64,000 nt of DNA from Escherichia coli (GCF_024502345.1 NZ_JALDNN010000001.1), one strand, 5' to 3'. Numbered from the stretch's first letter, positions 3,334-47,127 are shown. Notes: generated by a model from the sequence alone, not told the origin. Translations and numbers: made by a program.

Positions 3334-3348
3334 GGACAAACCCTGTCC
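3334..3348. promoter_or_regulatory. palindrome GGACA-N5-TGTCC (copy 1 of 3), candidate operator
   Basis: GGACAaacccTGTCC, 49 nt upstream of the ATG at 3397; same dyad recurs at 4191 and 47113. Confidence 0.45.
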
Positions 3349-3396
3349 GGGGGCTTCCTTAAACTGTCAGGTCCAATATCTGCAATGAGGTGAAAT

Positions 3397-4146
3397 ATGG
3401 CTACCTACCGACACGACCCTGATCTTGAATTTCTGCGCCACTGCCATCGTGACGATCTGGATTTACTGGTTTCTGTGCTTATCTGCGATCCGAAAGACGG
3501 ACTGGCACGCATCACGGAAACGCTGACCTATGATCCTCAGTATAAAAAACACAAGCCCAACCACCCGCGCTACTGGGATGCCATTGCCGCCGAGGTTCAG
3601 ACGTTTGGGGCGAACAGCTTTGCCACGCTGCTCCGCTGGGGTAAAGGGGTGCTGTACCGGGAAATTCTCACCGATGCCTGCGATAAAATGAAGGTGAACT
3701 ACAACAACAAATCCAGTGTTGAAACCATTGAAATGAATCTGCTGATGAAGATCCTGGAGAAAAGTCTTGAGAAGATGACGCCTGACCAGCTAAAGACCGT
3801 GGCGGAAGAATTGCAGACAGGCTACAGCAACCCCACGCCGGAGTTGCTGACCATGGCAATCCAGGCGGGGATAAAAACATCCGGGTTTGCGGCCTATCAG
3901 ATGGCACTTGTTGTCACAAATGGTGTGGCGAAAGCCCTGTTAGGCAGAGGGCTGACCGTTGCAGGAAATGCCATGCTGACGCGTACCATGGGCGCTTTTG
4001 CCGGTCCCGTGGGCTGGGTGCTCAGTTCTCTCTGGCTGCTGATTGATTTAGCCGGTCCCGCATACCGGGTGACGCTACCATCCTGCATTTTTATTGCCTA
4101 CATGCGCCAGAAGCATCTTTATTCACCTGAGAATACTGACGTTTAG
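3397..4146 (+). CDS. YaaW-like (UPF0174 family) protein
   Basis: N-terminus ...DPDLEFLRHCHRDDLDLLVSVL... and overall length resemble E. coli YaaW as I recall it; glycine-rich hydrophobic C-terminal segment. Confidence 0.6.
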   Translation: MATYRHDPDLEFLRHCHRDDLDLLVSVLICDPKDGLARITETLTYDPQYKKHKPNHPRYWDAIAAEVQTFGANSFATLLRWGKGVLYREILTDACDKMKVNYNNKSSVETIEMNLLMKILEKSLEKMTPDQLKTVAEELQTGYSNPTPELLTMAIQAGIKTSGFAAYQMALVVTNGVAKALLGRGLTVAGNAMLTRTMGAFAGPVGWVLSSLWLLIDLAGPAYRVTLPSCIFIAYMRQKHLYSPENTDV

Positions 4147-4190
4147 CACTTACATTTAAGGTATTCAGACTTTAAAAAACTTCAGAGGGC

Positions 4191-4205
4191 GGACAAATCC
4201 TGTCC
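4191..4205. promoter_or_regulatory. palindrome GGACA-N5-TGTCC (copy 2 of 3), candidate operator
   Basis: gcGGACAaatccTGTCCgc, 44 nt upstream of the ATG at 4249. Confidence 0.45.
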
Positions 4206-4248
4206 GCTACTGCTGGCATCATTTCCCGGCTAAATTCGGAAATGATGT

Positions 4249-4962
4249 ATGACGCTGATAACACAAGAAAACGAACATGACAGACTGGCAACCCGCCTTT
4301 CCATCATCCTGAGCCGTTTGTTTCAGGGTGAAAAGCTGCATATCGGGACGCTGGCAGAAGAATTTGGAGTGACGACGCGAACGCTGCGACGGGATTTCAA
4401 CGTCCGTCTGACCTACCTTGATATTGAACAGAGCAACGGCGTGTATCAGCTTGCCTCACATTACTTTCGTCGCCGCACGGAACGGGATATGAAGATACTG
4501 GCGAGGTTGCTGCATCTTGACCGTCTGTTACCCGCGATGGATGCCAAACTACTGAGCCTGATGCTTGACGGGGAACGTCCCTCGCCATACAGGATTATGC
4601 TACCGGAGCCGCGCCAGAAACCCACCCTTTTCGGTGATTTCAGCAGACTGACGCTCGCCATACTTAACCAGACCCAGGTGCGTATCAGAACCGACGAAAA
4701 CGTCAGCCATACCGTTCATCCCTACCGTCTGCTTTGCAGCCATGCGGAGTGGTTTCTTGCCGGATGTACGTCATCGGGCGTGTTCGTTATTTCCCTGTCC
4801 CGAATCAGGCTGGTTGAGGTATTACCGGATACAACGTTTGAGATCGATAACACACTCATTTCGCTGATTGAACAGTCTGACTTTATGGAAGCCTTACCCC
4901 ACATGAACATTATTCATCAGATAATGCATTACGGGAGTAAACAGACGAATAATCGTAATTAA
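4249..4962 (+). CDS. HTH transcriptional regulator, YfjR-like (DeoR-type HTH plus WYL-type C-terminal region)
   Basis: N-terminal HTH RLSIILSRLFQGEKLHIGTLAEEFGVTTRTLRRDFN; paralogous to the ORF at 47188. Confidence 0.6.
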   Translation: MTLITQENEHDRLATRLSIILSRLFQGEKLHIGTLAEEFGVTTRTLRRDFNVRLTYLDIEQSNGVYQLASHYFRRRTERDMKILARLLHLDRLLPAMDAKLLSLMLDGERPSPYRIMLPEPRQKPTLFGDFSRLTLAILNQTQVRIRTDENVSHTVHPYRLLCSHAEWFLAGCTSSGVFVISLSRIRLVEVLPDTTFEIDNTLISLIEQSDFMEALPHMNIIHQIMHYGSKQTNNRN

Positions 4963-5393
4963 AATCACAACATATTATTAGTGATGATTAAATCACATTA
5001 ACATGATAAGTGAGAAAGTTATGATTATCGATAAAGAATACGCACTTGTAAATGCAACAGCAAGACTTAACACTGACCTGAGGGATTATGAATATGAAAT
5101 AAACAACGCCGCCATCATAACATTTGGCAATGACCTCATTGAGGTAATCGTATATCAGTTCAGCTTTGTCATCAGCATCAGGGCAGAGGGTGAAAAAATA
5201 AAGCACGGCCTACTTGTTAACTTCGGTAAAAATATAGCAAGACAGGTTTCATCACTTTGTGCATCCGCAATGCGAGTCTACCCGAATGAAAAACACAAAC
5301 CGAGCCGTCAGCTTTTCCATTGCATAAATTAGTTTGTGCAAAGACTGTACTACCGACACGCAATAAATTAAAATAGGCCAGCTAATATAACAT

Positions 5394-7271
5394 ATGAGGT
5401 TTATGATGGCTGGCCAGTATGAAAAAGCAATAACGATAAAACAAGCGATAGATTCAATTAATTTACGCCACTATCTTCTGCCTGCAATTCAGAGGAAGTT
5501 CGTCTGGAGCAGCAGTCAAATATGTTTGCTGTTTGATTCCATCATGCGAGACTACCCGATAAACTCTTTCATGATGTGGGATATCCGTAGTGCCAGTATT
5601 AAAAATGATTACAAATTCTATGAATTCCTGAAAGAATACTGTCAGCGATTTAATGAAGAAAACCCCTGCGTAGCAACAAATGCTGGATTTCATGATTTCA
5701 AGGCGGTGATTGATGGTCAGCAGCGTCTCACATCATTATATATTGGATTGTGTGGAACGTATGCGTATAAACAGCCCCGGGTGTGGTGGCCTTCGGCACA
5801 GGATGATCGCATCCTGCCGCCCAGAAAGCTTTACGTCGATTTAACAGCGCCACTTAATTCAGACGATGAGCTCATGATGAAGTATAACTTCAGGTTCCTG
5901 ACCGACAAGCAATACGCTGATTCACTTACAGACAACAAGCATCACTGGTTCTGCCTGCACGAAATATTCAAATACGAGCAACATGATTCGCCTGATGATA
6001 TTTTATTTAACGTTGTCGTACCAGAACTCGAAAAAAGAGGACTCATTTCCAGTGAATTTTCCAGAAAAACATTACTGAGACTTTATACAAAAATAAGAAC
6101 TGAGAACATCATCCACTACTTCAATGAGAGTAGTCAGGATATTGACCATGTGCTGGATGTTTTCATACGCACGAACAGCGGGGGGACAAAACTTGAGTTC
6201 TCCGACTTACTGATGTCAATAGCGGTAGCGCACTGGCAGGGTGATTTCAGAAGAGAACTGGATGAACTGACAAAAAACATTTATCAGAATAATGAAATGG
6301 GGTTTTATATTGAAAGAGACTGGTTCTTAAAAACCAGCCTGATGCTTATTGACTCTGACGTCCGGTTCAAAGTAAAAAACTTCACTTCAGAGGAGGTCGG
6401 TAAGATACAACAACAATGGTCTGAAATAAAATCCTGCATCAAGGAGACTTTTATTCTTATCAGGCGATTCGGCATCAATCCACAGTCTTTGATATCTAAA
6501 AATGCAGTCATTCCTGTGGTCTACTGGCTTTACAAAAAGCAAACCAGTGGACATCCATTATATACAACGATTAACCTCCTGAATAAAAACCACAATGAAC
6601 GCTCAGTAATTAGCCAGTGGTTTTACATGGTACTTCTGAAAGGGATCTTTGGAAGCCAGGCAGATGCGCTACTCACGAGTATCAGAGATGTAATGAAAAA
6701 TAGTCTTTCAGATATTCACTTTCCTCTTGAAAAGATTATTGACAGATATAAAGGCTCGAATAAAGACCTCAGATTTGACGACGAATACATCGAAAGCCTT
6801 CTCAATATCAGATATGGCGAAGGTCGTTGCCGCGCACTATTGCATCTTCTGTTCCCTGAAATGAATCCGACCGAGGTGTTTCATATTGATCACCTTCACC
6901 CAAGAAATCACTTCTCAAAGAAATATCTTGAAAAATTAGATTATGTTGCGAACTCACCAGAGAACCTCAGCTTTTATGAAAACCCGGAACACTGGGACAC
7001 CATACCTAATCTTCATTTACTGAATCATTCTCAGAATATAAGTAAACAGGATACTTCCCTGAAACAATGGCTATCTCAGCCATCAAACAACTATTCGCCA
7101 TCAATGCTGTTAGTTTCAGATGAAAATATTGAGTTCAGTCGCTTCCCGGAATTCTACAATGAACGAAGAAACGCCCTGAAGCAAAGACTACTGAATCGGG
7201 TATTTCTTACAACAAAAATAGATTCATCACCATCCACAATCGATACGGATGAAGAAATTCTCACCGACTGA
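5394..7271 (+). CDS. DUF262/DUF1524 protein, GmrSD-like putative type IV (modification-dependent) restriction endonuclease
   Basis: N-terminal DUF262 hallmark ...AVIDGQQRLTSL... (DGQQR motif); C-terminal His-rich HNH-like region ...FHIDHLHPRNHF...; sits directly upstream of hsdM. Confidence 0.75.
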   Translation: MRFMMAGQYEKAITIKQAIDSINLRHYLLPAIQRKFVWSSSQICLLFDSIMRDYPINSFMMWDIRSASIKNDYKFYEFLKEYCQRFNEENPCVATNAGFHDFKAVIDGQQRLTSLYIGLCGTYAYKQPRVWWPSAQDDRILPPRKLYVDLTAPLNSDDELMMKYNFRFLTDKQYADSLTDNKHHWFCLHEIFKYEQHDSPDDILFNVVVPELEKRGLISSEFSRKTLLRLYTKIRTENIIHYFNESSQDIDHVLDVFIRTNSGGTKLEFSDLLMSIAVAHWQGDFRRELDELTKNIYQNNEMGFYIERDWFLKTSLMLIDSDVRFKVKNFTSEEVGKIQQQWSEIKSCIKETFILIRRFGINPQSLISKNAVIPVVYWLYKKQTSGHPLYTTINLLNKNHNERSVISQWFYMVLLKGIFGSQADALLTSIRDVMKNSLSDIHFPLEKIIDRYKGSNKDLRFDDEYIESLLNIRYGEGRCRALLHLLFPEMNPTEVFHIDHLHPRNHFSKKYLEKLDYVANSPENLSFYENPEHWDTIPNLHLLNHSQNISKQDTSLKQWLSQPSNNYSPSMLLVSDENIEFSRFPEFYNERRNALKQRLLNRVFLTTKIDSSPSTIDTDEEILTD

Positions 7272-7474: not shown

Positions 7475-9031
7475 ATGACAAGCCTTCAGCAGCGTGCAGA
7501 GCTACACCGTCAAATCTGGGCCATTGCCAATGATGTCAGAGGCTCCGTAGATGGGTGGGATTTTAAACAGTATGTACTCGGTGCACTTTTCTACCGCTTC
7601 ATCAGTGAGAATTTTTCCAGCTACATGGAAGCAGGGGATGAGAGCATACATTATGCAGCACTTGATGACAGCATCATTACCGATGACATCAAAGACGATG
7701 CCATCAGGACTAAAGGCTATTTCATCTACCCGAGCCAGCTGTTCTGCAACGTTGCCGCTAAAGCGAACACCAACGACAGGCTGAATGCTGATTTAAACAG
7801 TATCTTCGTCGCTATAGAAAGCTCTGCCTACGGCTACCCGTCAGAGGCCGACATCAAAGGCCTGTTCGCCGATTTCGATACGACCAGCAATCGACTGGGG
7901 AACACAGTTAAAGACAAAAACAGCCGTCTTGCCGCGGTTCTGAAAGGGGTTGAAGGGTTAAAACTTGGTGACTTCAACGAACATCAGATTGACCTGTTCG
8001 GTGATGCCTATGAGTTCCTGATTTCTAACTATGCCGCAAATGCCGGTAAGTCAGGCGGTGAGTTCTTTACACCGCAGCACGTCTCCAAGCTGATTGCACA
8101 ACTGGCTATGCACGGGCAGACCAGCGTTAACAAAATCTACGACCCGGCAGCGGGTTCCGGCTCACTGTTGTTGCAGGCGAAAAAACAGTTTGATAACCAC
8201 ATCATCGAAGAAGGCTTTTTCGGTCAGGAAATCAACCATACGACCTATAACCTGGCGCGTATGAACATGTTTTTGCACAATATCAACTACGACAAGTTTG
8301 ATATCAAGCTGGGTAATACACTGACTGAGCCGCACTTCAGAGATGAAAAACCGTTTGACGCCATCGTATCTAATCCACCGTATTCGGTGAAATGGATTGG
8401 CAGCGATGACCCGACGCTGATTAACGATGAACGTTTTGCCCCGGCTGGCGTTCTGGCCCCCAAATCCAAAGCTGACTTTGCGTTTGTATTACATGCACTG
8501 AACTATCTTTCTGCCAAAGGTCGTGCTGCGATTGTCTGCTTCCCGGGTATTTTTTACCGTGGCGGCGCAGAGCAGAAAATCCGTCAATATCTGGTCGACA
8601 ATAACTATGTCGAAACCGTGATTTCACTGGCACCGAACCTGTTCTTTGGCACCACCATTGCCGTCAATATTCTGGTGCTGTCTAAACATAAAACGGATAC
8701 CAAAGTTCAGTTTATTGATGCCAGCGAATTATTCAAAAAAGAGACTAACAACAATATCCTGACCGATGCCCATATCGAACAGATTATGCAGGTATTTGCC
8801 AGCAAGGAAGATGTTGCTCATCTGGCGAAATCTGTCGCGTTTGAGACCGTTGTCGCTAATGACTATAACCTGTCGGTGAGCTGCTATGTAGAAGCGAAAG
8901 ATAACCGCGAAATTATCAATATTGCTGAGCTAAATGCAGAGCTTAAAACTACGGTTAGCAAAATCGACCAGTTGCGTAAAGATATTGATGCGATTGTGGC
9001 TGAAATTGAAGGCTGCGAGGTGCAGAAATGA
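7475..9031 (+). CDS. hsdM: type I restriction-modification system, N6-adenine DNA methyltransferase subunit HsdM
   Basis: 518 aa; NPPY motif ([10 protein letters not shown]); AdoMet-binding region [10 protein letters not shown]; stop overlaps the hsdS start (ATGA). Confidence 0.95.
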
Positions 9032-10200
9032 GCGAGTTGAGTTATCTGGAAAAATTGCTGGATGGGGTTGAGGTTGAGTGGAAATCATTGGGAGATGTTG
9101 TAAATTTTCAGCGCGGAAGGCGGCTCGTAAAATCTCAGTTAGAAACCAGAGGTAAATATGCGGTTTACCAAAACAGCATGACACCACTCGGTTACTATCA
9201 TGAGTATAATGTCGCAGCTCAATCTTCGTTCATTATCTGTGCGGGTGCAGCCGGTGAAATTGGTTATAGCGAAAATGAATTTTGGGCTGCCGACGATGTT
9301 CATTTCGCAATCACACCAGAATATATAAATGACAGGTTTTTGTTTCATTTTTTGTTGACGCAAAAGAATAAAATTTCAGGACAAGTACGCCGTGCCAGTA
9401 TTCCGCGTCTCTCAAAGTCAGTAATTGAAAAACTTGAATTCCCCATCCCCTGCCCGGATAATCCGGAAAAGTCCCTTGCCATCCAGTCTGAAATCGTTCG
9501 GATTCTGGATAAATTTACTGCACTTACCGCTGAGCTTACCGCTGAGCTTAACATGCGTAAAAAACAGTACAACTACTATCGCGACCAGTTGCTGAGTTTT
9601 GATGAGGGTGAGGTTGAGTGGAAGGCTTTGGAGGAAGTCTCAACTTTTGCTAATGGAAAGGGGCATGAAAAAGACATATCAGAAGACGGTAAATATATTG
9701 TTGTAAACTCTAAGTTTATATCTACCAATGGCGAAGTCGCCAAGTTATCAAACAAACAGCTATGCCCTCTTTTTAAAGACGATATTCTTTTGGTTATGAG
9801 TGACCTGCCCAATGGCAAAGCACTTTCAAAAACATTTATTGTTGATGAAGATCATAAATACACTTTAAACCAACGTATTGGTGGAATTACAGTAAAAAAC
9901 AGTAATGAATTACTCCCTAAGTTTTTGCACTATTTTTTAAATAGAACCCCGCAATTGCTGAAACATGACAATGGTGTTGATCAAACAAATTTGCGTAAAG
10001 GTCAAATACTTGAAGTAAAAATACCAATAATTTCACTCATCAAACAAGTTCAGATCGTTGAAACTCTTGATAAATTCGATACTTACACTAAGTCGATTTC
10101 AGAAGGCCTCCCGCGCGAAATCGAGCTGCGCCATAAACAGTACGAGTACTATCGTGATTTATTGTTCAGCTTCCCGAGACCAGAAACCGCCAGCAACTGA
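9028..10200 (+). CDS. hsdS: type I R-M specificity subunit HsdS (type IC-like)
   Basis: Two target-recognition domains separated by a conserved central region with the TAEL repeats (LTAELTAEL) and a related C-terminal repeat (...[14 protein letters not shown]). Confidence 0.9.
9523..9550 (+). repeat. 12-bp direct repeat CTTACCGCTGAG x2 (plus partial CTTA) in the hsdS central spacer region
   Basis: Read directly: cttaccgctgag cttaccgctgag ctta, encoding LTAE-LTAE-L. Confidence 0.9.
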
Positions 10201-10316
10201 CGGACCATTGATACCGGCAGGGTTTGTTCTCACCCGCCCGGTATCAGGCTTTAAGAATGCCGGAAGATGCTTCTGATACCCTTCCGGAATTTGCCAGATG
10301 ACGCACAGGATGCACC

Positions 10317-13300
10317 ATGACACAACAGATACACACCATTGCTGAATCCAATAACTTTATCGTCCTTGATAAATACACCAAAGTTCTGGAGAACGGCGAC
10401 AGCTACCAGAGCGAATCGGATCTTGAGCGGGAACTGATTCAGGACCTTCTGAATCAGGGCTATGAATTTATATCCGTTAAGTCACCGACAGCGATGCTGG
10501 CGAATGCACGGGACCAGCTTCAGCATCTTAATGGTGTGGTGTTTAACGAAAGTGAATGGCGGCGCTTCGCAGAGCAGTATCTGGACAGCCCCAGTGACAG
10601 CAGCCTGGACAAAACTCGTAAAATCCATATCGACTATATCTGTGATTTCACGTTTGATGACGGTCGTCTGGAAAACATCTATCTGATAGATAAAAAGAAC
10701 CTGCTGCGCAATAAGGTGCAGGTCATTCAGCAGTTTGAACAGACCGGCTCACACGCTAACCGTTATGACGTCACCATTCTGGTTAACGGCCTGCCACTGG
10801 TGCAAATCGAACTCAAAAAGCGCGGCGTGGCTATTCGTGAAGCCTTTAACCAGATACACCGTTACAGCAAGGAAAGCTTTAACAGCGACAACTCCCTGTT
10901 TAAATACCTGCAACTGTTTGTGATATCTAACGGAACCGATACCCGGTACTTTGCCAGTACCACTAAGCGGGATAAAAACAGCTTTGATTTCACCATGAAC
11001 TGGGCGAAGTCGGATAACACTCTGATTAAGGACCTGAAGGACTTTACCGCCACCTTCTTCCAGAAACATACCCTGCTGAATGTTCTGTTTAATTACAGCG
11101 TGTTTGACAGCAGCCAGACTCTGCTCGTCATGCGCCCCTATCAGATTGCCGCCACTGAGCGAATCCTCTGGAAAATTAACAGCTCATTTAAAGCGAAGAA
11201 TTGGTCAAAACCCGAAAGCGGCGGGTTTATCTGGCATACCACCGGGTCAGGCAAAACCCTGACCAGTTTTAAGGCTGCACGACTGGCAACCGAACTGGAC
11301 TTTATAGACAAAGTCTTCTTCGTGGTCGACAGAAAAGACCTTGATTACCAGACAATGAAGGAGTATCAGCGCTTTTCTCCGGACAGCGTCAACGGTTCGG
11401 ATAATACAGCAGGCCTCAGAAGAAACCTGGATAAGGACGATAACAAAATCATCGTCACAACCATTCAGAAACTCAATAACCTGATGAAAGCCGAAGCTGA
11501 CCTGCCCGTCTATCAGCAGCAGGTAGTGTTTATCTTTGATGAGTGTCACCGCAGCCAGTTTGGTGAGGCCCAGAAAAACCTCAAAAAGAAATTCAGACGC
11601 TTTTATCAGTTTGGTTTTACCGGTACGCCTATTTTCCCGGAAAATGCACTGGGGGCAGAAACCACAACCAGCGTGTTCGGGCGTGAGTTACATTCTTACG
11701 TCATTACTGATGCGATTCGTGATGAAAAAGTACTGAAGTTTAAGGTGGACTATAACGATGTCCGCCCACAGTTTAAGTCTCTTGAAACGGAAACAGACGA
11801 GAAAAAACTCAGCGCGGCTGAAAACCAACAGGCATTTTTGCACCCCCTGCGTATCCAGGAAATAACGCAATACATTCTCAATAACTTCCGGCAGAAAACA
11901 CACCGAACCTTCCCGGGAGCTAAGGGCTTTAACGCCATGTTAGCAGTTAGCAGCGTGGACGCGGCGAAAGCTTATTACACGACGTTTAAAATGCTACAGG
12001 AAGAAGCAGAGAAGAAATCTGGCAGCTATAAATGCCTTCGGGTGGCAACCATCTTCTCCTTTGCTGCAAATGAAGAGCAAAGCGCCATTGGTGATATTAC
12101 TGACGAAAGCTTTGATACCAGTGCAATGAACAGCAGCGCGAAGGAATTCCTGGATTCAGCCATTGATGACTATAACAATCACTTTAAAACCAATTTCAGC
12201 ACCGACAGTAACGGTTTCCAGAACTACTACCGCAATTTAGCTCAACGAGTGAAAAATCAGGATATTGACCTTCTCATCGTGGTGGGAATGTTCTTGACTG
12301 GCTTTGATGCCCCGACGCTTAACACTCTTTTCGTTGACAAAAACCTCCGTTATCACGGCCTGATGCAGGCATTTTCCCGCACAAACCGTATCTATGATGC
12401 CACCAAAACCTTCGGCAATATCGTGACTTTCAGGGATCTGGAGCGTCCGACCATTGATGCCATCACACTATTTGGCGACAAAAACACCAAGAATGTGGTG
12501 CTGGAAAAAAGCTACGAAGAGTACATGCAGGGCTTTACCGATGCGGCAACCGGTGAGGCTAAACGAGGTTTTATGGCTGTTGTTTCGGAGCTGGAGCAGC
12601 GCTTCCCTGACCCTGCCAGTATCGACAGTGAAAAAGAGAAAAAAGCCTTCGTCAAACTGTTTGGTGAATATCTGCGGGCAGAAAACATCCTGCAAAACTA
12701 TGATGAATTTGCCACGCTGAAAGCCCTGCAGAAGGTTGATATTAGTGACCCGGAAGCGGTAGAAACCTTTAAAGCAGAGCACTATGTGGATGATGAAAAA
12801 TTTGCTGAATTACAAACCATTCGTCTCCCGGCAGAACGTAAAGTTCAGGACTATCGCTCAGCATACAATGATATCCGGGACTGGCAGCGACGCGAAAAAG
12901 CATCAAACGACAGGGATAAATCAACCACAGACTGGGATGACGTGGTGTTTGAAATTGACCTGCTGAAGTCGCAGGAAATTAACCTGGATTACATCCTTGG
13001 TCTGATTTTCGACCACAATCGTCAGAAAAAAGGTAAAGAAGCCCTGACTGAAGAGGTCAGACGCTTAATCCGCTCAAGTCTGGGCAACCGTGCCAAAGAA
13101 GGTCTGATTGTTGACTTTATTCAGCAAACTAACCTTGATGACATGCCGGACAAGGCCAGTATCATTGATGCATTCTTTACCTATGCTCAGCGTGAACAGC
13201 AACGGGAAGCAGAGGCGTTGATTAAGGAAGAAAACCTCAATGAAGAGGCTGCAAGGCGCTATATCCGCACATCACTAAAACGGGAGTATGCCACCGAAAA

Positions 13301-13433
13301 TGGGACGGAGCTAAATGAGACGCTACCAAAGCTCAGTCCGCTGAATCCTCAGTACAAAACGAAAAAGCAGACTGTATTCCAGAAAATTGGGGCATTTATC
13401 GAAAAATTTAAAGGGGTTGGAGGACACCTCTAG
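10317..13433 (+). CDS. hsdR: type I R-M restriction subunit HsdR (SF2 helicase/translocase plus nuclease)
   Basis: 1038 aa; Walker A ([10 protein letters not shown]) and DEAD-box motif II ([10 protein letters not shown]). Confidence 0.95.
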
Positions 13434-20566: not shown

Positions 20567-20812
20567 GTGTTGTATCTAATCGTGGGGGCAGGTCACTCGA
20601 CTTGGTTCCATTAAAAACCATGAAGTTGATATAGGGTCAAGATTTTATACGATATACACATCAAGCATCTTGCATGAGTCGCACTGACTGACCCGGGTTA
20701 GTTACCATCATATTCTTTATGGTTGAGACCATACGGAAATCAGTGAATTAAAAATATTTATTCATCCAAAACACAAATGGTTTTAAGAAAGCCTAATGCC
20801 CTTCTTGTAAAA

Positions 20813-21082
20813 TTATTCAAGATAGTCAAGTATGTTTTTTATATTGTCAATTAAGGCGACATGCAGGTCAGGGTCATCACATTCATCTGAATGGCAATAG
20901 GAAATATGTTGAAGTATAATTCTTTTTTTGAATTCACTAACTGTACACTCCAACTCATACACCGACCGTACGATATCAATACAAGGTTCATCATCGATTA
21001 AAAAATCCTGCATTTTATTATACTTATCAGTCAGATCTTCTATCATAGAAATTAATACGGGGTCATTAACTAACATTGGCAT
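20813..21082 (-). CDS. hypothetical small acidic protein (89 aa)
   Basis: ORF 20813..21232 trimmed to the ATG preceded by AGGAGA; AT-rich; no family recognised. Confidence 0.35.
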   Translation of the reverse strand: MPMLVNDPVLISMIEDLTDKYNKMQDFLIDDEPCIDIVRSVYELECTVSEFKKRIILQHISYCHSDECDDPDLHVALIDNIKNILDYLE

Positions 21083-21470
21083 ATCTCTCCTCATAATCTG
21101 AAAGTAAAGATGGACACAGCGCTGATAAATTCCAATTCCCTTGCTTGCGGTACCGACCGGGAGGAAGATGAAACTTGTTTTTAAAAGCTCTCGTGAAAGT
21201 TTGTTGCGAATTAAAACCATACTGAAGTGCAATGTCTAGGACTGTTCTGGAAGTCAATTTCAGATCAATCGCAGCACATGATAATCGACGAGCACGAACA
21301 TATTCACCCAGCGCAACACCGGTCGTCTGTTTAAACAAACGTTGAAAATGCCATCGTGAATACCCAGACTTCTCAGCAATAAATTCTACTGGCAAGGTTG
21401 TATTCAATGAACTTTCAACCCACTGCAAAATATCTTTGACAACACTTTCAGAATATTTCCTGGTGTCCAT
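21066..21470 (-). CDS. AraC-family transcriptional regulator of the MarA/SoxS/Rob type
   Basis: ...KSGYSRWHFQRLFKQTTGVALGEYVRARRLSCAAIDLKLTSRTVLDIALQYGFNSQQTFTRAFKNKFHLPPGRYR aligns in my recollection with MarA/SoxS dual-HTH domains. Confidence 0.7.
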   Translation of the reverse strand: MDTRKYSESVVKDILQWVESSLNTTLPVEFIAEKSGYSRWHFQRLFKQTTGVALGEYVRARRLSCAAIDLKLTSRTVLDIALQYGFNSQQTFTRAFKNKFHLPPGRYRKQGNWNLSALCPSLLSDYEERYANVS

Positions 21471-21562
21471 TCTCTCCCCCCAAACCATATTCTATGAATA
21501 TATTCAAACCAGAATACGGTCTCTGAGTCTGTCATCCATGAAGAACTCAGGGACCCAACTCT

Positions 21563-27840: not shown

Positions 27841-28845
<1,005 letters not shown>

Positions 28846-28890: not shown

Positions 28891-29253
28891 ATGTCCAGCA
28901 CATCAGATTGCGGCAACATACAAGACTGTTCCGCGACAGATCATGTCGCGGAGCCAGATCTATCAATGCTCTCGCAAAACGACATTGGGCAACTTTCCGA
29001 GATTTTCCATCTACTGGGGGACCAGTCAAGACTACGAATCCTGCTTTACTGTATGCGTGGTTCGGTCTCTGTAGGCGACATTGCTGAGTCGCTCCAGTTA
29101 TCACAATCTCTGGTCAGTCATCATCTGAGGTTGTTACGAAGTGCAAGGCTTGTTCGCGGAGAGAGAAAGGGTAAGTACATATTTTATAGCATAATGGATC
29201 ACCATGTAAGTCATGTTCTTCAGGACATGGTATTTCACATAGCTGAAGAATAA
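28891..29253 (+). CDS. ArsR/SmtB-family metalloregulatory repressor
   Basis: HTH ...VGDIAESLQLSQSLVSHHLRLLRSARLV...; start codon choice uncertain. Confidence 0.7.
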   Translation: MSSTSDCGNIQDCSATDHVAEPDLSMLSQNDIGQLSEIFHLLGDQSRLRILLYCMRGSVSVGDIAESLQLSQSLVSHHLRLLRSARLVRGERKGKYIFYSIMDHHVSHVLQDMVFHIAEE

Positions 29254-29487
29254 CCCGAATGAATTTTGATAAGTAGAGCTTGTGTAATTCCAACTCACCT
29301 TAGTTTTTCATTACTTTGGTGAGTTGTTTCATCATTAATTTATTAAAACCTTAATAATTAACCTTTTAATAATGAAACCTGCCCCCTTCCCTTGTATGTA
29401 ATAAATACCTGATGGTTCACTATCACCAGATAAAGCGAAGTGAGCAGGCCACCTCATGAAGGAGAAACCTTGCTTTGCAAGCTTATT

Positions 29488-29550
29488 GAATAGCCACGGA
29501 TAATCTAGTTTGTCTGCTTCGTGCCAAAAGCGGACATTGCTACATCACAA
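29488..29550. repeat. solo IS3-family inverted-repeat-like 21-mer followed by a palindromic element (copy 1 of an inverted pair)
   Basis: GAATAGCCACGGATAATCTAG nearly matches the IS end TGAATCGCCACGGATAATCTAG at 33425; then TGTCTGCTTCGTGCCAAAAGCGGACAT...TGCTACATCACAA, inverted relative to the copy at 32483..32519. Confidence 0.5.
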
Positions 29551-29637
29551 TGCGTTATGGTCAACATCAGAATGCAGCCCTTGTGTTGTGACGTGTAGTC
29601 TGGCCTAAACGCAGTTGCACTACATTACCTCGTGGGG

Positions 29638-29886
29638 TCAGCGACGGCCCCGTTTCAGTTCACGTACACAGGGATCATACTCATCTGCATAGCCACCAAA
29701 GTCATGGCTGGGCATGAAGTACCACTTTTCACCTTTCCAACCAGCGATCCGGGTGGTCGGTTTGGTTTTATTCAGAACAACAATACAGACGCCGACGGGA
29801 GACACTGGAGGAAGAAGTCGTTGCACCACACACTCACGATTGCCCACATCAATCCAGTCTTTGACGTGAATTTCAGGATGGTTCAT
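29638..29886 (-). CDS. hypothetical protein (82 aa)
   Basis: ORF only; overlaps a plus-strand ORF (29632..30057); strand choice uncertain. Confidence 0.3.
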   Translation of the reverse strand: MNHPEIHVKDWIDVGNRECVVQRLLPPVSPVGVCIVVLNKTKPTTRIAGWKGEKWYFMPSHDFGGYADEYDPCVRELKRGRR

Positions 29887-30166
29887 TGTTTATCTTCATG
29901 TGATGGAATTGCTTACCGTAATGCATCCGATTACCGTGCAAGATCATGTATCCTGTCGCCTTCCTGCTCCCTTGAGGTGGCGCTGCCTTGGTACAGTCAG
30001 CACTCTGAATGTCAGGCCCAGCCGCGAGGCCGGAAGCTCATCAGGTCGCTGCGGTAGGGGAAAACGGTCCGGGTAACAGACCGTAATCGCCTGCTGGTGG
30101 TTATTGGCCCTGACTGGAGCCGCACTGAAAACTGAAGCGCATTAATATACTCGCGCCTCCGACAGG

Positions 30167-32305
30167 TCAGGCAATTTCTTCCAGCGCATCGTCATTTGCC
30201 GGTGGAGGAGGAAGTATAAGCGCGTCGCACTCCCTGATGACATATTCAGGAATGAGATCAAACCGGGCAGGATCCAGCTGACAGATAAATTCATTTTCAA
30301 TGTGGTAGGTCTCATTCATGAATTTACGTATTACTGCGTTCTCGAGTCCGGTCTGAAGCAACCTGAACACCTGCAGTTTCTCGTAGCCATTACGGCAGAG
30401 CAGATAAAGCGCACGTATACGATCCGGGTCGGTGAGCTGAACGAAAGTGGCCTGGTAGTCAAAGCCGGGAATGCGATCGGCGATTGCCTGGCAGCCGAAG
30501 GCAACTTTTTCTGCGGACATTTCAGGATGTCCCACTCCCTGCACAACGGGTTCACGGGTGTCGATGGGCGTTTCACGGTGATGAAAAAGGTTTGACAGCA
30601 CCTGATAGGCATCACCGAGGTCGTCCATAATTTCATAATGTCGGCGAAGATAGATCAACTTGATGATGTCTTCACTATCAGAGTCAGTGACAGACTGGCA
30701 GATCTGAGCAAAAGTGCGGATATCACTTTCACCGATGAGCTGCTCGGTGATGCAGCCTGCGCTGTAGTGCAAGTGTGAGGCCGTAACCAGATTACTGAAC
30801 AGCTTCCTGACGGACTTCAGTGTATCAATAATAGGCTCAACATCGTGAGTCAGCATCAGTACCGTTTCATTTTTCAGGCACTCACCGGTATTGCGGCGAA
30901 ACAGCATCTCCAGGATGGCAAATTTCTTGTTCTTATCAAACGATGAAATCGGGTCGTCAAGAATGATCAGGCCTGGCTTCTTGGCTAAGCATTCATACAT
31001 AAACAGAACAATGGCAAAGGCGTTGCGTTCACCGTAGCTGAGATGCTGGCTGCCGCCGCTGACGTAGCCTTCAAAGTCTTCGTGGCGCAGTTTCAGCCGA
31101 CATTTATCGCCTTCCCCAGTGATATCCACCTGATAACGATAGCCTGCGTAAGCCAGAAAGGTATTGATATCGGTTTTATGCTTGAGGATCAGCTTCTGCA
31201 TGCCCTGACGCTGCTTATTTATTTGACCCTGCAGGCGTCCGGCCTGCGTCGTCAGGTCGTCTAAAGAGGTATTGAGACTGGCTACGGTGCGGGCCGTTTT
31301 ATCCGACTGCAGCTCCGGGAAAAACTTCACGTCTAGGCGACAGGCTTCCAGTGCAGCCTTGACGTTGGTTGAAGCGCTGAACGTAAAGCCGTTAAGAGTC
31401 TTAAGGGTATTCAGCATATTTATCAGGCTGTCTGTCTGCTTCTTCACTGTCACGAGATATTCTTCGTGCTGTTTTTCCAGCCCACTTTTTAGGGTTGTAA
31501 TATCAGCGAGGCGGGCACGGGCAGGCTCTGAAAAATATTCGCCGAGTTTATCTAGCACGCCGATCAGGCCGATCAGGTTTTTAATGACAGCCTTATCATA
31601 CTCCGCGCTGACGCGGCTAATCTGCTCGGCCTTTTCACGGGAGTCGCCAGTACAGAACGGACAGCAGCCGTCGGATAGCGCGGAGAATTTCTCATACCCC
31701 CGGGTCTGCCACTCGATCCACTCTACGCTGCTTTTACTTTGGATGTACGGCTTATAAGATTCCAAACCGTCGGGAATGTGCTGAAGCTTGTTGCCAGCGG
31801 ATAAGCCTTTCATACCGGTAGACGTTTTTGCAATCCCGGTACTACTCAGCTTAAATGCGGCGCTGAGTTCCCCCAGGTGCGTGATGAATTCTTCAAGCCC
31901 GACGTTATCAGCAAACTGCTGCCGTATGGCCACGACCATGGCTTCGATTTCGCGTTCTGTCTCGTGATACGCTTCACTTTTGATGAAGATGTCAAAACTA
32001 TTACTTACTAACTCGTCTGGTTGAAAAGTGAATTGATCGACATATTTTTCATTAAAGCACATGACGTTTTGCAGGCCATCGACACCAGTTACCCTAGGCT
32101 GTACTGCATCGGGATTAGAACCACGGTATCTAAACGGAAGCAGGTCGCTGAGACCCTGTTCATCCCCGTTTACCGTACACTGAATCGCGCGGGAAATGGT
32201 GCTTTTTCCGGTGCCGTTAGGCGCAAATTTAATATTTAGTTTTTTTTCTGCCAGAGTTATATTTGCTTTATCGATGTTATTACAGCAATTAATTTCAATT
32301 TCCAT
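30167..32305 (-). CDS. ABC-type ATPase with coiled-coil insert and CxxC zinc-hook motif (RloC/Rad50-like); candidate abortive-infection or anticodon-nuclease-type defence protein
   Basis: 712 aa; Walker A FAPNGTGKST near the N-terminus; long helical insert containing DGCCPFCTGD; Walker B LIILDDP; H-loop LTHD; C-terminal domain of about 220 aa with ...YLRRHYEIMDD...FHHRE.... Confidence 0.6.
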   Translation of the reverse strand: MEIEINCCNNIDKANITLAEKKLNIKFAPNGTGKSTISRAIQCTVNGDEQGLSDLLPFRYRGSNPDAVQPRVTGVDGLQNVMCFNEKYVDQFTFQPDELVSNSFDIFIKSEAYHETEREIEAMVVAIRQQFADNVGLEEFITHLGELSAAFKLSSTGIAKTSTGMKGLSAGNKLQHIPDGLESYKPYIQSKSSVEWIEWQTRGYEKFSALSDGCCPFCTGDSREKAEQISRVSAEYDKAVIKNLIGLIGVLDKLGEYFSEPARARLADITTLKSGLEKQHEEYLVTVKKQTDSLINMLNTLKTLNGFTFSASTNVKAALEACRLDVKFFPELQSDKTARTVASLNTSLDDLTTQAGRLQGQINKQRQGMQKLILKHKTDINTFLAYAGYRYQVDITGEGDKCRLKLRHEDFEGYVSGGSQHLSYGERNAFAIVLFMYECLAKKPGLIILDDPISSFDKNKKFAILEMLFRRNTGECLKNETVLMLTHDVEPIIDTLKSVRKLFSNLVTASHLHYSAGCITEQLIGESDIRTFAQICQSVTDSDSEDIIKLIYLRRHYEIMDDLGDAYQVLSNLFHHRETPIDTREPVVQGVGHPEMSAEKVAFGCQAIADRIPGFDYQATFVQLTDPDRIRALYLLCRNGYEKLQVFRLLQTGLENAVIRKFMNETYHIENEFICQLDPARFDLIPEYVIRECDALILPPPPANDDALEEIA

Positions 32306-32482
32306 ACCTAATCCTTTACGGCAAAGACACTGAGCAGGCCCCGTATATTGCAGGCCCGATTAATTATTTAAGCTGAAGCCAGAACATATAAGCACCGTTT
32401 CATTTTTGAGTAAAGCACTCCGGGATTCGCCCTTGGTACCGCAGCGCCGGAGCAGTTGTTTTATAGAGCGTATGTACGGCGC

Positions 32483-32519
32483 TTGTGATGTATGTCCGCT
32501 TCGTGCCAAGAGCGGACAT
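32483..32519. repeat. palindromic element (copy 2 of the inverted pair)
   Basis: TTGTGATGTA TGTCCGCTTCGTGCCAAGAGCGGACAT; inverted repeat partner of 29511..29550. Confidence 0.5.
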
Positions 32520-32588
32520 TTGCACCCTCAGTACCCGCACCAGACTAAGCCGGCTCAGCAATGTCGGCGTTGCTGATACTGACAGACG

Positions 32589-33424
32589 TTATGCCGTTTT
32601 AAAGCGACGTTTCCGGTGTATCACCATGAGAGCGACAATTACCGCCACCGCAATTGTCGCGGTCCCCCGGAAGACGACTGATGAATCTCCTAGGATGATT
32701 TCCATGAATGATGATAAAAACTGGCCGGAGAATATAGCCATAGAAAGCCAGGCAAGGTTACGTCCCCGGACGCGAGCGTGACTCTGCTCGACTGTCATAT
32801 GATTCACAAGCGGCACCGACAGACCAAACCCACAACTCATTAAAACCCCGCCAGCGATGTAGAACACTACATTATCAGCGAATGAAAATATGAAATGTCC
32901 GGCAGCGTAGCAGCTAAACGCCGTGTACAGATTTCCGTACTCACGTAAACGCGCTATGAGGCGCGGCATCATCGCAGCAGCCCCGACGGCGACCAGTGAG
33001 ATAAACGACAGAAAGTATCCGGTTTCTGCTGCCCCAATAGCCATGCAGCTAAACACCTGCGGAATGATGATAATGCTGGTGAAGAAGCAAATCATGGACA
33101 GCAGGGCTGCAAAAAGCACAGGCGCTAATCGAGTCGCACTCACCGATTCGCTTTCTCCGGCGTTTTCATTCATGTTTTCTGTCCCAGAGGACAATTGTTA
33201 CGGCACAAACGCCAGCTGCATAACCAGAAGAACCTAGGCAAAAAGATGAAGCAAAAACGGCCACTGCCAGCCAAGGGTTGCAAGTAATCCGCCTATAAAC
33301 AGAAAAATGACACCGCCCAGCTCAATCAACATTCCCTGCGAAGGTATCATTTTCAGGCAAGCCTGACCGCTATGAAACGAGGAAATCAATCCGGTTCCTG
33401 CTGACATGACGATGGCGGTATCTG
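32589..33424 (-). pseudogene. MFS-type transporter gene remnant, frameshifted and cut by the IS3-family element
   Basis: ORF 32589..33194 is hydrophobic with about 6 TM helices; more TM-like coding sequence continues upstream in another frame to the IS boundary at 33425. Confidence 0.45.
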
Positions 33425-43762: not shown

Positions 43763-45311
43763 AATAGGTTGTGGTTACCCTGAAAAGCAAATATTACCCC
43801 AGAGGGATGTATATACCCGGGGCAAGAGCCCCTGTACCAGTCCCTCATTGCTGTCATGATATTATTACCCCGTTCAATAAGCCCGATAAATAATCGTTAT
43901 CGGGACTACTGCTAAAACGCCCTGTAACGCATCAGGAGCGCCATATTCATACTAACCACAGATTTCCACTATCGTGTTATTCAATGCGCTTATGCAGGCT
44001 CACAGGAAGCTATGGCGGTATAAGACACTACAGCGCTCAATTACTTATTAAATAGCTTGCGGTGATTACCAGGATAATCACCCTATTCCACGTCACCTCA
44101 ATCGGGTTATTCTGTTTACGATACAATCATGACTATTATCACCAACACGGATAATGCCCCGTTTACAGTCGTTACCAATGGCCTTGTTTACACATATCAA
44201 AAAACTTTCAGGGATAACGGGTCACCGTAGTATCTGTAACTGACAGGTATTGTAAGCGTCAATATCAGGCAGACAGAGCAATACCGACAGGCTTACTACA
44301 GGTTAGTTCACTGACTGAGCATTTAACGCTCATCACTAATACGCAGACCAGTAATAAACCATTGATACTCACCTGCTGATTTTCAGGCATGACCATTCAC
44401 CCAAAACGTTACTGTTAACCAGTAACCACCCTGTCGTTATGATTATTAGATTACTGATGTTAATCATCTTCACTTTTATCCTGACGAGGACTAGTCAATG
44501 GTAATATCGACTCAATTCAATTCTGTTTTCTTAATGATAGATTTTTAATGAGTGCTAAACATTCAGGTTGTGACTACATTGAATGGTGTATTTCTTACCT
44601 GATGGCAATGATTGCTCAATGGATACCATCCAATAGTACTATCCCCTTAGTGAATACCTTCAGATAATAATACCTCCCAGGCATAACCCACTTACTGATA
44701 ACACATCATCGATTACTGTTACAAATGATAAGACCCCTTCTTTAATATATTAATACCAATCCAACACGCCAGGCATAACAATAGCTATGAAGATAACCAC
44801 GCCAGACAGCACTTACCTACAACAAACGCCTGCATCAGTTACTCTGGAATTATCTTTTTTCAATAACATGAAAATAGACACCACGTCATATCAAATAACC
44901 TCAATCAAATTAACCCCGTATCATCACTGCCCGCAGAAGCCCTCAATCCTGATTATGAGCAACAAAATGGAAATACCTCATGGCAGCCCGACCTGATACC
45001 AGAAATGCCCCCTGAAGCGAACCAGGCACCATGATGGGGATGAAAACGAAAGCATGCAGGAGAACAAGATAACCTATTGAGACGATACTCATCCAGTAAA
45101 CAGAGAAGCATCTGAGAGATAAACAAAGAAAATGACAACTTTAAAACCATGGTAAAACCTTGTCAAAACCAGTATAAATCAACAATAAAACCTCACGATG
45201 ACTACCAGATGTGTTTTTAAGTGACGATAAAACCATCATCGTGATACTGTGTAGCTACAACAATCACCACCATAACCACTACTATGTAGTTTACGATTAC
45301 AGGTATCCACA

Positions 45312-46280
45312 ATGGTTGTACATTACGACAATGGCAGACAACATCTTATAAAAACCCGTGACCTGAGAGTCTGTGCTTTTTATGCCGGGTGGCTGGGTGT
45401 TAATAAAATAATTAACACCCGTGACATTCCTCACCAGGATGCAGAAAGTTGTCGACAGGCACTCAACAAACTGATTAATCAGTTCATACCGAATGCAGAA
45501 CAGCGGGCAAGACTTTTTTCTGATATGGAAACAGCCCGTGATGAAAACATCCTTCCGCTGGAAAGTTTTGACTGGCTAGAACAGGATGAACGGGCAACAT
45601 TCTGGTTATGGGCGTATATTTGCAAGGCCGGAGACTACGAACTTGGTATTGACAAACCAGCAAATGCAGAGTTCGGAAAGAACTGGTATCAGCGAATGAA
45701 TCTGAGTGTATCTCCGACAAGCCACCAGGAAAGAATTAATATTATCATCTCTTTTTTCGACAACATTATTATTCCGACCCCACCGGTAAATCATCTCAAG
45801 CGCCAGGTCATGGACAGGCTGAAAGACCAGTGGAAAAATATTTACAGCAAACCAGCTCCGCTGAAATGGTTACCTAATGAAGAAGACGCGGTACTGTGGG
45901 CATGGAACAGCCTCAAATCGCTTCAGGAAGAAAGAAATGCGCCCACTATCGGGCTCTCATTAAATATTTCAACGCCAGGAATGAGTACCTGGTTTACCCC
46001 CCTGAGTCATTCTGAACGCAATTTAGCCCTGCGCACGGCGATCGACTTATGGGACGATGCACCGGATACAAAGCGTTTATTCCTTCTGAACCTGAATAAA
46101 GCCTGGAACCAGCAAAAATTACGTCAGTCCCGTACCGATAAAAAAGCACTCAATACGTACCTGAAGAACGAAACAAAAACTCGACTGGACTTTATGGCAG
46201 AACGTAGCGGAGTTCGCATCAGTGATATGCTGGAAATGCTGATTAATGACCATTACCGAAAAACCTGTGGTGGTGAGTGA
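45312..46280 (+). CDS. hypothetical protein (322 aa), orphan gene after a 1.5-kb AT-rich non-coding region
   Basis: Long ORF with normal amino-acid composition; no family recognised. Confidence 0.5.
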   Translation: MVVHYDNGRQHLIKTRDLRVCAFYAGWLGVNKIINTRDIPHQDAESCRQALNKLINQFIPNAEQRARLFSDMETARDENILPLESFDWLEQDERATFWLWAYICKAGDYELGIDKPANAEFGKNWYQRMNLSVSPTSHQERINIIISFFDNIIIPTPPVNHLKRQVMDRLKDQWKNIYSKPAPLKWLPNEEDAVLWAWNSLKSLQEERNAPTIGLSLNISTPGMSTWFTPLSHSERNLALRTAIDLWDDAPDTKRLFLLNLNKAWNQQKLRQSRTDKKALNTYLKNETKTRLDFMAERSGVRISDMLEMLINDHYRKTCGGE

Positions 46281-46629
46281 GGGCTTTGCGCTAAAAACAA
46301 GGTGAGCGGAGGCAGTAATACAGACCAGAAATGACATTCAAAATAATTTCAGACCTATATTACCGGTGTGAGAACGGCAGCAGAAGTGCTGCCGTTTTGT
46401 TATTTCACTCACGGAGGTTAATGTGTCCAGTAAGAACAAACGGGGTCCCGATACCCTGTTACCGTCGTTATTCCTTCTCCCGGGTCAACTGTCCCACAAA
46501 ATACCCGTGCGTATGCTTCTCGCGCTAAGTCACAGCTATGCTTTCTGTTCCGGTACCCAGGTCTCTCTGATACACGGTCCGCCAGCTCATGAAGGCGGCT
46601 ATTTATTGCCAGTAATAAGGGAGAAAGAA

Positions 46630-46926
46630 ATGCATTGTCCGAATTGCGGTTCGCAAAACATACGACTGCGCCATGTGGGTAAAAAGACGGGTGGGGTCAT
46701 TGGCGCAACAGCCGGAGGCATTGCCGGGCTTGAAGGAGCCTCCACCGGTGCGCTGATAGGTTCAGTCATTCCGGTTGTCGGTACGATAGCCGGAGGCCTC
46801 ATTGGTTTTCTGTCCGGCGCCTGTGCTGGTGCGGTGGCAGGCTCTCTGGCCGGAGAACAACTGGACGGTACCGTCTTTGATGAATACGGCTGCACGCAGT
46901 GCGAGCATATCTTCAGTGCACCGTAA
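46630..46926 (+). CDS. small zinc-ribbon / glycine-zipper membrane protein
   Basis: ORF 46423..46926 trimmed to MHCPNCGSQN (GGGAG RBS); CPNC...CTQC Cys pairs flanking a Gly-rich hydrophobic segment. Confidence 0.45.
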   Translation: MHCPNCGSQNIRLRHVGKKTGGVIGATAGGIAGLEGASTGALIGSVIPVVGTIAGGLIGFLSGACAGAVAGSLAGEQLDGTVFDEYGCTQCEHIFSAP

Positions 46927-47112
46927 CGTTAATAAGGGTCAGCCCATCCTGCACAAAGCCTGAGCCGCTGACCGTACTCGCTACGGCACGACTGATGACA
47001 GGGCGTGTCAGCATGCTGTCGTCATTTCAGCTACCTGGCACTAACCCTTTGTTAATTCTCCTGTTTACTGAAAGATGAATTTTACTTTTTCTTTTCCGCC
47101 ATTACGGGGGAT

Positions 47113-47127
47113 GGACATAACGTGTCC
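47113..47127. promoter_or_regulatory. palindrome GGACA-N5-TGTCC (copy 3 of 3), candidate operator
   Basis: GGACAtaacgTGTCC, 60 nt upstream of the ATG at 47188. Confidence 0.45.

Follow-up and report, generated by a model that had tools for sequence, protein, structure and literature searches.

Transcription regulators that join a winged helix-turn-helix (wHTH) to a WYL domain have been described both as activators and as repressors, and several of them bind palindromes. DriD of Caulobacter crescentus recognizes a box of the form ATACGAC(X)7GTCGTAT, for example ATACGACAGTAACTGTCGTAT, with the core CGACA-N5-TGTCG (PMC13004042). In the crystal structure of DriD bound to DNA, base reading falls to R37 for G2 and to R41 for the G opposite C4, with E40 in contact with C1 (PMC10853764). 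DriD sites overlap the place of the −35 element at a constant distance from the −10 element, and DriD-dependent promoters have no −35; in a didA construct with an “optimised −35”, TTGACA occupies positions 4-9 of the 15-mer, by our own count of positions (PMC13004042). The motif of PafBC, tGTCgg(N10)tA(N3)T, the −26 element of mycobacterial “sigma adaptation”, also belongs to promoters without a −35 (PMC8635444), and the palindrome bound by SiwR, a homodimeric WYL activator, lies between −35 and −10 and has GGA at −26 (PMC10693628). BrxR and CapW are repressors whose half-sites of 10-11 bp, 5 bp apart, are found within canonical promoters or beyond them (PMC9122601, PMC9122589, PMC11662680). 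Here, we describe a 15-bp dyad, GGACA-N5-TGTCC, that recurs upstream of genes for YfjR-like wHTH-WYL regulators in a 64-kb stretch of Escherichia coli DNA (NZ_JALDNN010000001.1; 64,000 nt), referred to below as the window. On balance, the dyad is best read as an operator of these regulators at promoters that lack a −35 element, from which they would activate transcription in the manner of DriD.

Two observations have been reported for YfjR of E. coli K-12: genomic SELEX (systematic evolution of ligands by exponential enrichment) identified the yfjR operon as its single target (PMC8249747), and ChIP-exo (chromatin immunoprecipitation with exonuclease treatment) detected no binding in K-12 (PMC8464067). 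In the literature searched, no paper was found that reports which motif YfjR or related proteins bind. In the window, the exact pattern GGACANNNNNTGTCC occurs three times: as GGACAAACCCTGTCC at 3334-3348, in the promoter of a YaaW-like gene; as GGACAAATCCTGTCC at 4191-4205, in the promoter of the gene for a first YfjR-like protein (regulator 1); and as GGACATAACGTGTCC at 47113-47127, in the promoter of the gene for a second (regulator 2). All three are identified both by the exact pattern and by matrix score, and the dyads are listed without a strand. In dinucleotide-preserving shuffles of the window the pattern occurred 0.03 times on average and at most once, and none of 100 shuffles reached three. 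The last base of the dyad is separated from the ATG by 48 nt at 3397, 43 nt at 4249 and 60 nt at 47188. The pattern scan therefore bears out the three sites listed in the first-pass annotation, which had been made from the sequence of the window, and the measured gaps fit its statement that they lie 44-60 nt upstream of these starts. The palindrome at 47113 is prolonged by its flanks (GGGGA-t-GGACA…TGTCC-c-TCCCC).

A weight matrix was trained solely on dyad sites from other genomes; the distal 15-mer of K-12 had been entered one base off register, which left the ranking unaffected. Only four sites in the window score above 16 bits, at 47113, 4191, 3334 and 2808, against a null mean of 0.125. 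The last of these, GGACATCTCCTGACC at 2808-2822, has one mismatch and scores 16.6 bits; it lies 45 nt upstream of the open reading frame (ORF) at 2868-3254, in its promoter region, and is kept together with the same −10 in a 58%-identical orthologous locus (L009). A distal, apparently auxiliary dyad, TGACAGGGCGTGTCA, is found at 46996-47010, 117 bp upstream of the dyad at 47113, in flipped orientation with the extended half GACAGG at its left. With 12.7 bits it is near noise by score alone, and it is considered meaningful because equivalent distal copies exist in other genomes. The remaining matches of 12-13 bits (29223, 24680, 42092 and 28934) do not rise above noise, nor does their gene context match, and the matrix scan of the window found no dyad before the HEC-05 gene or hsdM, which are described below. 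The earlier three-site picture was thus right about each of its sites and incomplete, since the window holds five.

Additional evidence came from loci in other genomes. The comparison set comprised 40 loci retrieved by similarity to the regulator protein, with one genome per species and no use of the DNA motif, together with K-12 yfjR (locus L043); these 41 loci amount to 316.5 kb. They contain 37 exact dyads, compared with 0.27 expected from composition; each of the 37 precedes the regulator gene or a YaaW-like gene directly before it, and there are none elsewhere in the loci. A motif scan of related islands had been suggested as a check on the original observation, and its outcome supports that observation. 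The dyad stands upstream of the regulator or of the head of its operon in nearly all genomes. When exact, one-mismatch and degenerate proximal sites are counted together, they extend down to 34% protein identity, in genera such as Enterobacter, Citrobacter, Yersinia, Rouxiella, Ewingella, Buttiauxella, Providencia, Pectobacterium, Klebsiella, Hafnia, Serratia and Escherichia; a dyad is also present in one Vibrio locus. The YaaW-like gene and the YfjR-like regulator form a conserved pair and, when they are adjacent, the dyad is found before the first gene alone. Loci L014-L024 (Yersinia, Rouxiella, Ewingella, Buttiauxella and Providencia) have such a two-gene unit, in which a YaaW/DUF3944 (JukA-like) gene comes immediately before the regulator gene. 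In the window (3397-4962), unlike in L014-L024, the YaaW-like gene and regulator 1 each have a separate dyad promoter.

Many loci carry a pair of sites 108-123 bp apart, among them those of K-12, Klebsiella, Pectobacterium, Yersinia and Buttiauxella, and L046. The distal member is often a perfect palindrome of the flipped form GGACAGG-N3-TGTCC, the proximal member having the form GGACA-N3-CCTGTCC, and the distal dyads have no −10 hexamer at +11; they may serve in looping, as auxiliary operators or as second promoters. Besides 46996-47010 in the window, distal dyads were located at 9517-9531 in L043 (K-12), at 3010 in L014, 3049 in L018, 3806 in L025, 3782 in L035 and 186 in L046. Upstream of K-12 yfjR, the distal site is GGACACCACCTGTCC and the proximal site is GTCCATACCCTGTCC, followed by 11 nt and then TAAAGT; the left arm of the proximal site is degenerate, and the recognition helix of K-12 YfjR is the same as in regulators 1 and 2.

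Distant metagenomic relatives provide a further comparison. Four had their upstream region available; contigs L047, L048 and L050, which do not include the operon promoter, were left out. These four proteins are ~25-31% identical and 291-299 aa long, three of them match the WCX domain, and all four have the dyad element. In three cases the dyad is followed by 11 nt and a −10-like hexamer: TGACACACCCGGTCC with GATAAT, CGTCATAACCTGTCT with CATAAT, and TGACATGGGTTGTCA with TATTCT. The fourth has a pair of dyads, CGACAGGTTGTGTCG and CGTCACAACCTGTCG, and the proximal copy has its −10 at +10. A separate architecture was seen in L042, from a metagenome-assembled genome of Vibrio sp. UBA2441, where an HTH with the sequence VSERTLRRD is fused to a PfkB/ribokinase-like domain and no WYL domain is present. 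This gene begins at ~4016, and a perfect GGACATTTATTGTCC lies ~121 nt upstream of it, at 3880-3894. The Vibrio case suggests that the HTH module and its operator travel jointly between domain architectures.

Regulators 1 (4249-4962, plus strand; 237 aa) and 2 (47188-47916, plus strand; 242 aa) are both HTH_DeoR and WYL proteins and are 35% identical to one another. K-12 YfjR is 43% identical to regulator 2 over 222 aa (E=3e-53) and 36% identical to regulator 1 over 217 aa (E=1e-38), full-length and with the same domain order. In regulator 1, Pfam identifies a winged HTH (HTH_DeoR, E=6e-6; HTH_11, E=3e-4) and a WYL domain (E=4.6e-4); the PADLOC WYL scores of the regulators are 3e-15 and 4e-20, and P158, Y159, W168 and L170 are conserved WYL residues. 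An AlphaFold2 (AF2) model of regulator 1, with a predicted local distance difference test score of 88.9, has helices at 5-25, 32-39 and 43-53, a beta wing at 59-68, linker helices and an Sm-like barrel. Among PDB structures, the top Foldseek matches of regulator 1 consist entirely of WYL transcription factors: BrxR, which heads the list, CapW, PafBC and DriD (E 4e-8 to 1e-4). No WCX domain was matched in regulator 1 by Pfam, and the model shows one long helix, 210-234, beyond the WYL barrel.

The recognition helix of regulator 1 is TRTLRRD, which includes R44, R47 and R48. In a family profile alignment, VSeRTiqR corresponds to VGRRTAER of DriD, so that R44, R47 and R48 take the positions of R37, E40 and R41; the HTH segment scores weakly. 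A sequence search of the PDB with the HTH alone returned SpoIIID only, and the equivalence with DriD rests on the profile alignment. The RTLRRD helix is invariant wherever the dyad is flanked by G, with the caveat that one peptide pattern of the locus retrieval contained RTLRRD, which makes its universality partly a matter of construction. In relatives with the helix RT[IL]QRD, the outermost pair of the dyad is altered on both sides, from G/C to C/G or T/A. Across these proteins and DriD, the residue at the E40 position is matched by the outer base: R with G, Q with T or C, and E with C. The contrast between RTLRRD and the Q-type helix, the latter seen in four loci, can be considered informative despite the retrieval caveat. 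In 36 aligned sites the inner four arm positions show no compensatory change; pairing is lost in 17 departures, and there is almost no variation at C4, A5, T11 and G12. It is base identity that is conserved, and not pairing, which argues for a protein-binding palindrome rather than a hairpin.

Taken with the 37 dyads at loci retrieved by their regulators, the covariation of helix and outer base makes it very probable that the dyad is the binding site of the adjacent YfjR-like regulator. In this respect, the comparative evidence sides with the proposal in the first-pass annotation that the dyad is an autoregulatory operator of the WYL/YfjR-like family, as a prediction of binding.

The position of the dyad within the promoter was examined in 32 distinct promoter sequences anchored on it. 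In 28 of the 32, the best −10-like hexamer begins exactly 11 nt past the dyad, and the hexamer at +11 has A at its second and T at its sixth position in every one (TAAACT, CATCAT, CATAAT, TAAAGT, TATCGT, TACGTT and others), with 11-nt spacers that are unrelated in sequence. In the window, the predicted −10 hexamers, all on the plus strand and all 11 nt past their dyads, are CAGGCT at 2834-2839 (dyad at 2808; with A2, T6 and TG at −15/−14), TAAACT at 3360-3365 (3334), CATCAT at 4217-4222 (4191; TG at −15/−14) and CATAAT at 47139-47144 (47113). This places the dyad at about −38 to −24. On average over 23 representative promoters, the hexamer closest to TTGACA at a spacer of 16-18 agrees with it at 2.3 of 6 positions, which is background, and a neutral scan of the intergenic regions for sigma-70 promoters found no canonical promoter before 3397, 4249 or 47188. 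In the same representatives, the 11-nt spacer is 65% G+C and the 30 nt upstream of the dyad are 57-71% A+T. The promoter-proximal half, CCTGTCC, is more informative than the distal half, and K-12-type proximal sites retain that half alone. Each of the four proximal dyads would thus make up half of a composite promoter together with its predicted −10, a point absent from the earlier three-site description. For K-12 yfjR, although the gene is well expressed, no promoter could be predicted in a published survey (PMC9308461).

Two other promoter assignments were rejected. The left arm, xGGACA, was discarded as a −35 hexamer because it stands too far from the −10, with a spacer of 21 bp. On direct reading, the consensus registers of sigma-54 (GG-N10-GC) and sigma-E (GGAACTT-N16-TCAAA) promoters do not fit.

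The register of the dyad promoters is that of described WYL-dependent promoters, an unusual layout demonstrated to date only for activators of the DNA-damage response such as DriD. The place that a −35 with a 17-bp spacer would take in them corresponds to the register of TTGACA in the didA construct, and the distance from GTC to the −10 is the same as in the PafBC motif. Two features of DriD-type promoters are present in the sequence, namely a GAC-N7-GTC core with aligned arginines, and a box at the −35 position in the absence of a −35 hexamer. A motif-first scan of IMG/VR with GGACATAACCTGTCC served as a control. It returned 42 occurrences, about the level of chance by a rough estimate of the size of the collection; no YfjR-like HTH gene lies within 1.6 kb of any of them, and an xAxxxT hexamer at +11 is present in only four, compared with 32 of the 32 family promoters. 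Since the bare 15-mer is found in unrelated DNA, specificity lies in its combination with the −10 and the regulator gene.

Based on these features, a mechanism can be proposed in which each GGAC/GTCC half-site would receive one recognition helix of a regulator dimer. From the homology to DriD, regulator 1 would use R44 and R48 for the G of GAC and the G opposite its C, and R47 for the outer G. The four proximal dyads would each supply the upstream part of a composite sigma-70 promoter, occupying the usual place of the −35 in the order A/T-rich UP-like tract, dyad, G+C-rich 11-nt spacer, −10 hexamer. The bound regulator, probably switched by a ligand through its WYL domain, would replace the missing −35 contact and so activate its own operon, the YaaW-like gene and ORF 2868. 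Transcription is predicted to start ~6-8 nt past the −10, at 2846, 3372, 4229 and 47151 in the window and at ~2,769,665 of NC_000913.3 for yfjR. Because the recognition helix is common to both regulators, both proteins likely act on the four proximal sites and the distal one, and the four proximal promoters of the two islands probably make up one cross-talking regulon. In regulator 2, residues ~176-182 include R-V-F-R at the positions of the contacts of DriD with single-stranded DNA (ssDNA), R204-S-W-R207. The paralogues may answer different signals while sharing an operator.

That the regulator acts as an activator at the dyad is less secure than the predicted binding, and we consider it somewhat better supported than the contrary. 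The main alternative is that a repressor of the BrxR/CapW type, bound over −38 to −24, blocks RNA polymerase and is released by a signal bound to its WYL domain, as negative autoregulation. BrxR and CapW are WYL regulators of defence and mobile islands that repress from palindromes with 5-bp gaps in their own promoters, an operator over −38 to −24 is suited to occlusion, and BrxR came first in the fold search. Regulator 1 adjoins defence genes (JukA-like, HEC-05 and type I restriction-modification), and in SELEX, with no ligand added, purified YfjR picked out its own operon (PMC8249747). A repressor would require an active promoter, but there is no −35 here and the −10 hexamers are weak. TGn and UP-like tracts in some promoters could supply intrinsic activity. 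The distance from the dyad to the −10 is fixed across unrelated spacers and distant relatives, which is typical of activators that dock RNA polymerase, and the register is that of DriD- and PafBC-dependent promoters. There is also no similarity to BrxR or CapW at the level of sequence: with either regulator, phmmer found no BrxR or CapW chain at E<=1, a narrow family profile found none, and a wide family profile reaches BrxR at E=8e-4 over the WYL domain only.

Activation is favoured on account of the rigid spacing, the missing −35, the weak −10 hexamers and the better-conserved proximal half-site, which K-12-type sites retain alone. It is favoured further by a register shared with three characterised WYL activators and by the lack of ChIP-exo occupancy in unstressed K-12 (PMC8464067). 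DriD-like activation, with positive autoregulation, is on these grounds somewhat more likely than repression by occlusion, which we regard as a strong alternative.

While these data are consistent with activation from an operator at promoters without a −35, several observations weigh against that interpretation. Many of the promoters share descent, and the 32 sequences correspond to about ten independent groups. Five of the 23 representatives have a TGn extended −10, and A/T-rich upstream tracts are present in all the representatives, so that basal activity without an activator is possible. Regulator 1 lacks both of the arginines that contact ssDNA in DriD and has F-V-I-S there, and the regulators, at ~235 aa, are ~60-90 residues shorter than DriD and BrxR and have no WCX domain. 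L026, from Erwinia rhapontici, has no recognisable dyad within 270 nt upstream of its regulator, though the helix there is RTLRRD; it is the sole clear exception among full-length homologues. The missing ChIP-exo signal in K-12, cited above in favour of activation, counts at the same time against binding of the operator by YfjR.

It is improbable that the dyad is bound mainly by another protein, either a 52-aa HTH-only product encoded at 2635-2793 or a host factor, and that its association with WYL regulators is indirect. The 52-aa ORF has the same RT-x-RRD helix, and the Vibrio fusion of a DeoR-type HTH with a sugar kinase has a perfect dyad in the absence of a WYL domain, indicating that it is the HTH, and not the WYL domain, that tracks the motif. 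The 52-aa ORF is, however, confined to the lineage of island 1 (L003-L013), whereas the dyad occurs in all lineages. The dyad also follows the regulator gene across genera and into the metagenomic relatives, its outer base covaries with a residue of the regulator's helix, and a host factor is not needed to explain the association.

A function of the palindrome as a nucleic-acid hairpin, whether as terminator, attenuator or RNA stability element, is very improbable. When the flanks are included, two of the four copies in the window form more stable folds than shuffles do (−15.5 and −18.2 kcal/mol; z = −3.8 and −2.9), but the other two do not, no copy is followed by a T-run, and the predicted transcription starts lie downstream of the dyad. 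The absence of compensatory change in the four inner pairs at 36 sites, with 17 departures that break pairing, led to the rejection of this reading together with the missing T-run. Chance recurrence of a short palindrome is negligible as an explanation, for although one exact version of the 15-mer occurs 42 times in unrelated viral contigs with no regulator near, it is refuted by the shuffle, matrix and protein-retrieved-locus counts (three sites against 0.03; 37 against 0.27, in one gene context) and by a −10 at +11 in 4 of the 42 background copies against 32 of 32 family promoters.

The gene identities on which the operator model draws agree with the first-pass annotation, whose YaaW-like (3397) and YfjR-like (4249 and 47188) assignments are borne out by RefSeq, PADLOC, Pfam and identity to K-12 YfjR. 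The first dyad-preceded gene of island 1 is the ORF at 2868-3254 (plus strand), which encodes a hypothetical protein of 128 aa with no family match in scans of family libraries including PADLOC. Its transcription unit appears to end at a hairpin with a T-run of the intrinsic terminator type at 3286-3311 (plus strand), just ahead of the dyad at 3334. The YaaW/DUF3944-family gene (3397-4146, plus strand) is named as such in RefSeq and matches JukA in PADLOC at E=3.5e-72; no JukB partner was detected for it. Downstream of regulator 1, an ORF at 5003-5332 and a DUF262/GmrSD-type HEC-05 gene at 5394-7271, on the plus strand, follow after gaps of 40 and 61 nt with no dyad of their own, and judging from this arrangement they are probably co-transcribed with regulator 1. 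Type I restriction-modification genes (7475-13433) lie downstream of the HEC-05 gene. The neighbourhood of regulator 1 is thus one of phage defence. Regulator 2 is not beside defence genes and opens a CP4-57-like module with small ORFs, DUF4234, DUF905 and DUF932.

Ahead of these genes lies the 52-aa HTH-only ORF (2635-2793, plus strand), whose translation contains FDVSPRTARRDL and no WYL domain, and whose homologue is called a DeoR family regulator in RefSeq. It stops 15 nt before the dyad at 2808, and its RT-x-RRD helix is as in both WYL regulators. Its VSPRTARRD motif is conserved in L003-L013. The product could be a second dyad-binding protein, that is, a WYL-less competitor for the operator, or the ORF could be a gene remnant. 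Elsewhere in the window, 100% identity to the CP4-57-like island of E. coli EH09-18-41 ends at ~50534, within the DUF932 gene, and is followed by a block on the minus strand whose first gene encodes a DEAD/DEAH helicase (50676-53414); island 2 appears to be truncated or interrupted near 50534. Between the two islands, at ~20600-33400, lie copper/silver-type P-type ATPases, cueR, a cation diffusion facilitator, major facilitator superfamily transporters and insertion sequences. This segment is 100% identical to E. coli strain 44, and matches to a group II intron and a phosphoethanolamine transferase lie close by.

These results bear first on YfjR, a K-12 transcription factor hitherto without motif or function, for which there are now a candidate operator, candidate start sites and candidate base-contacting residues. 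They further suggest that a WYL-dependent promoter type without a −35 would reach beyond Alphaproteobacteria and Actinobacteria. Such promoters seem to occur widely on mobile and defence islands of enterobacteria, and this is relevant to the way in which defence genes and modules of cryptic prophages are turned on. As the paralogous regulators apparently have a common operator, cross-talk is predicted between islands in one cell, here two. A wider proposal, which we hold tentatively and rate a little short of even, is that the YfjR family are the enterobacterial counterparts of DriD and PafBC: ligand-switched activators that would take over the −35 contact at a promoter class of their own (GGAC-N7-GTCC, 11 nt, −10) and would couple a nucleic-acid or stress signal to CP4-57-like islands and defence modules (YaaW/JukA-like, HEC-05 and type I restriction-modification) through a cross-activating regulon with a shared operator, modulated by the conserved distal flipped operator and, in a single lineage, by the HTH-only paralogue.

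Palindromic WYL operators and the DriD architecture were already known; what is new is that a clade common in Enterobacterales, hitherto uncharacterised, now has a model of its operator and promoter. The likeness to BrxR and CapW consists of the wHTH-WYL fold, a 5-bp gap in the regulator's own promoter, the defence-gene setting and a second site on the island (R-BOX2). The half-site sequence is different (the helix is SRQQ in Acinetobacter BrxR), those proteins have a WCX domain, and the conserved arms here are 5-7 bp. PafBC, which is actinobacterial, differs in being a heterodimeric fusion; it engages one half-site only and slots in between sigma region 4 and DNA. Here, the full dyad is the rule, although K-12-type proximal sites hold the promoter-proximal half alone. 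In DriD, the outer base is a C read by E40, where here it is a G that goes with R47. DriD serves a chromosomal DNA-damage regulon, whereas the regulators described here, ~235 aa long and without WCX, are found on enterobacterial mobile and defence islands. With DriD, these regulators nevertheless have in common a GAC-N7-GTC arrangement within a 15-bp core (CGAC-N7-GTCG in DriD; GGAC-N7-GTCC here), and DriD is likewise a wHTH-WYL protein, homodimeric, with an R-T-x-x-R recognition helix and its own promoter among its targets.

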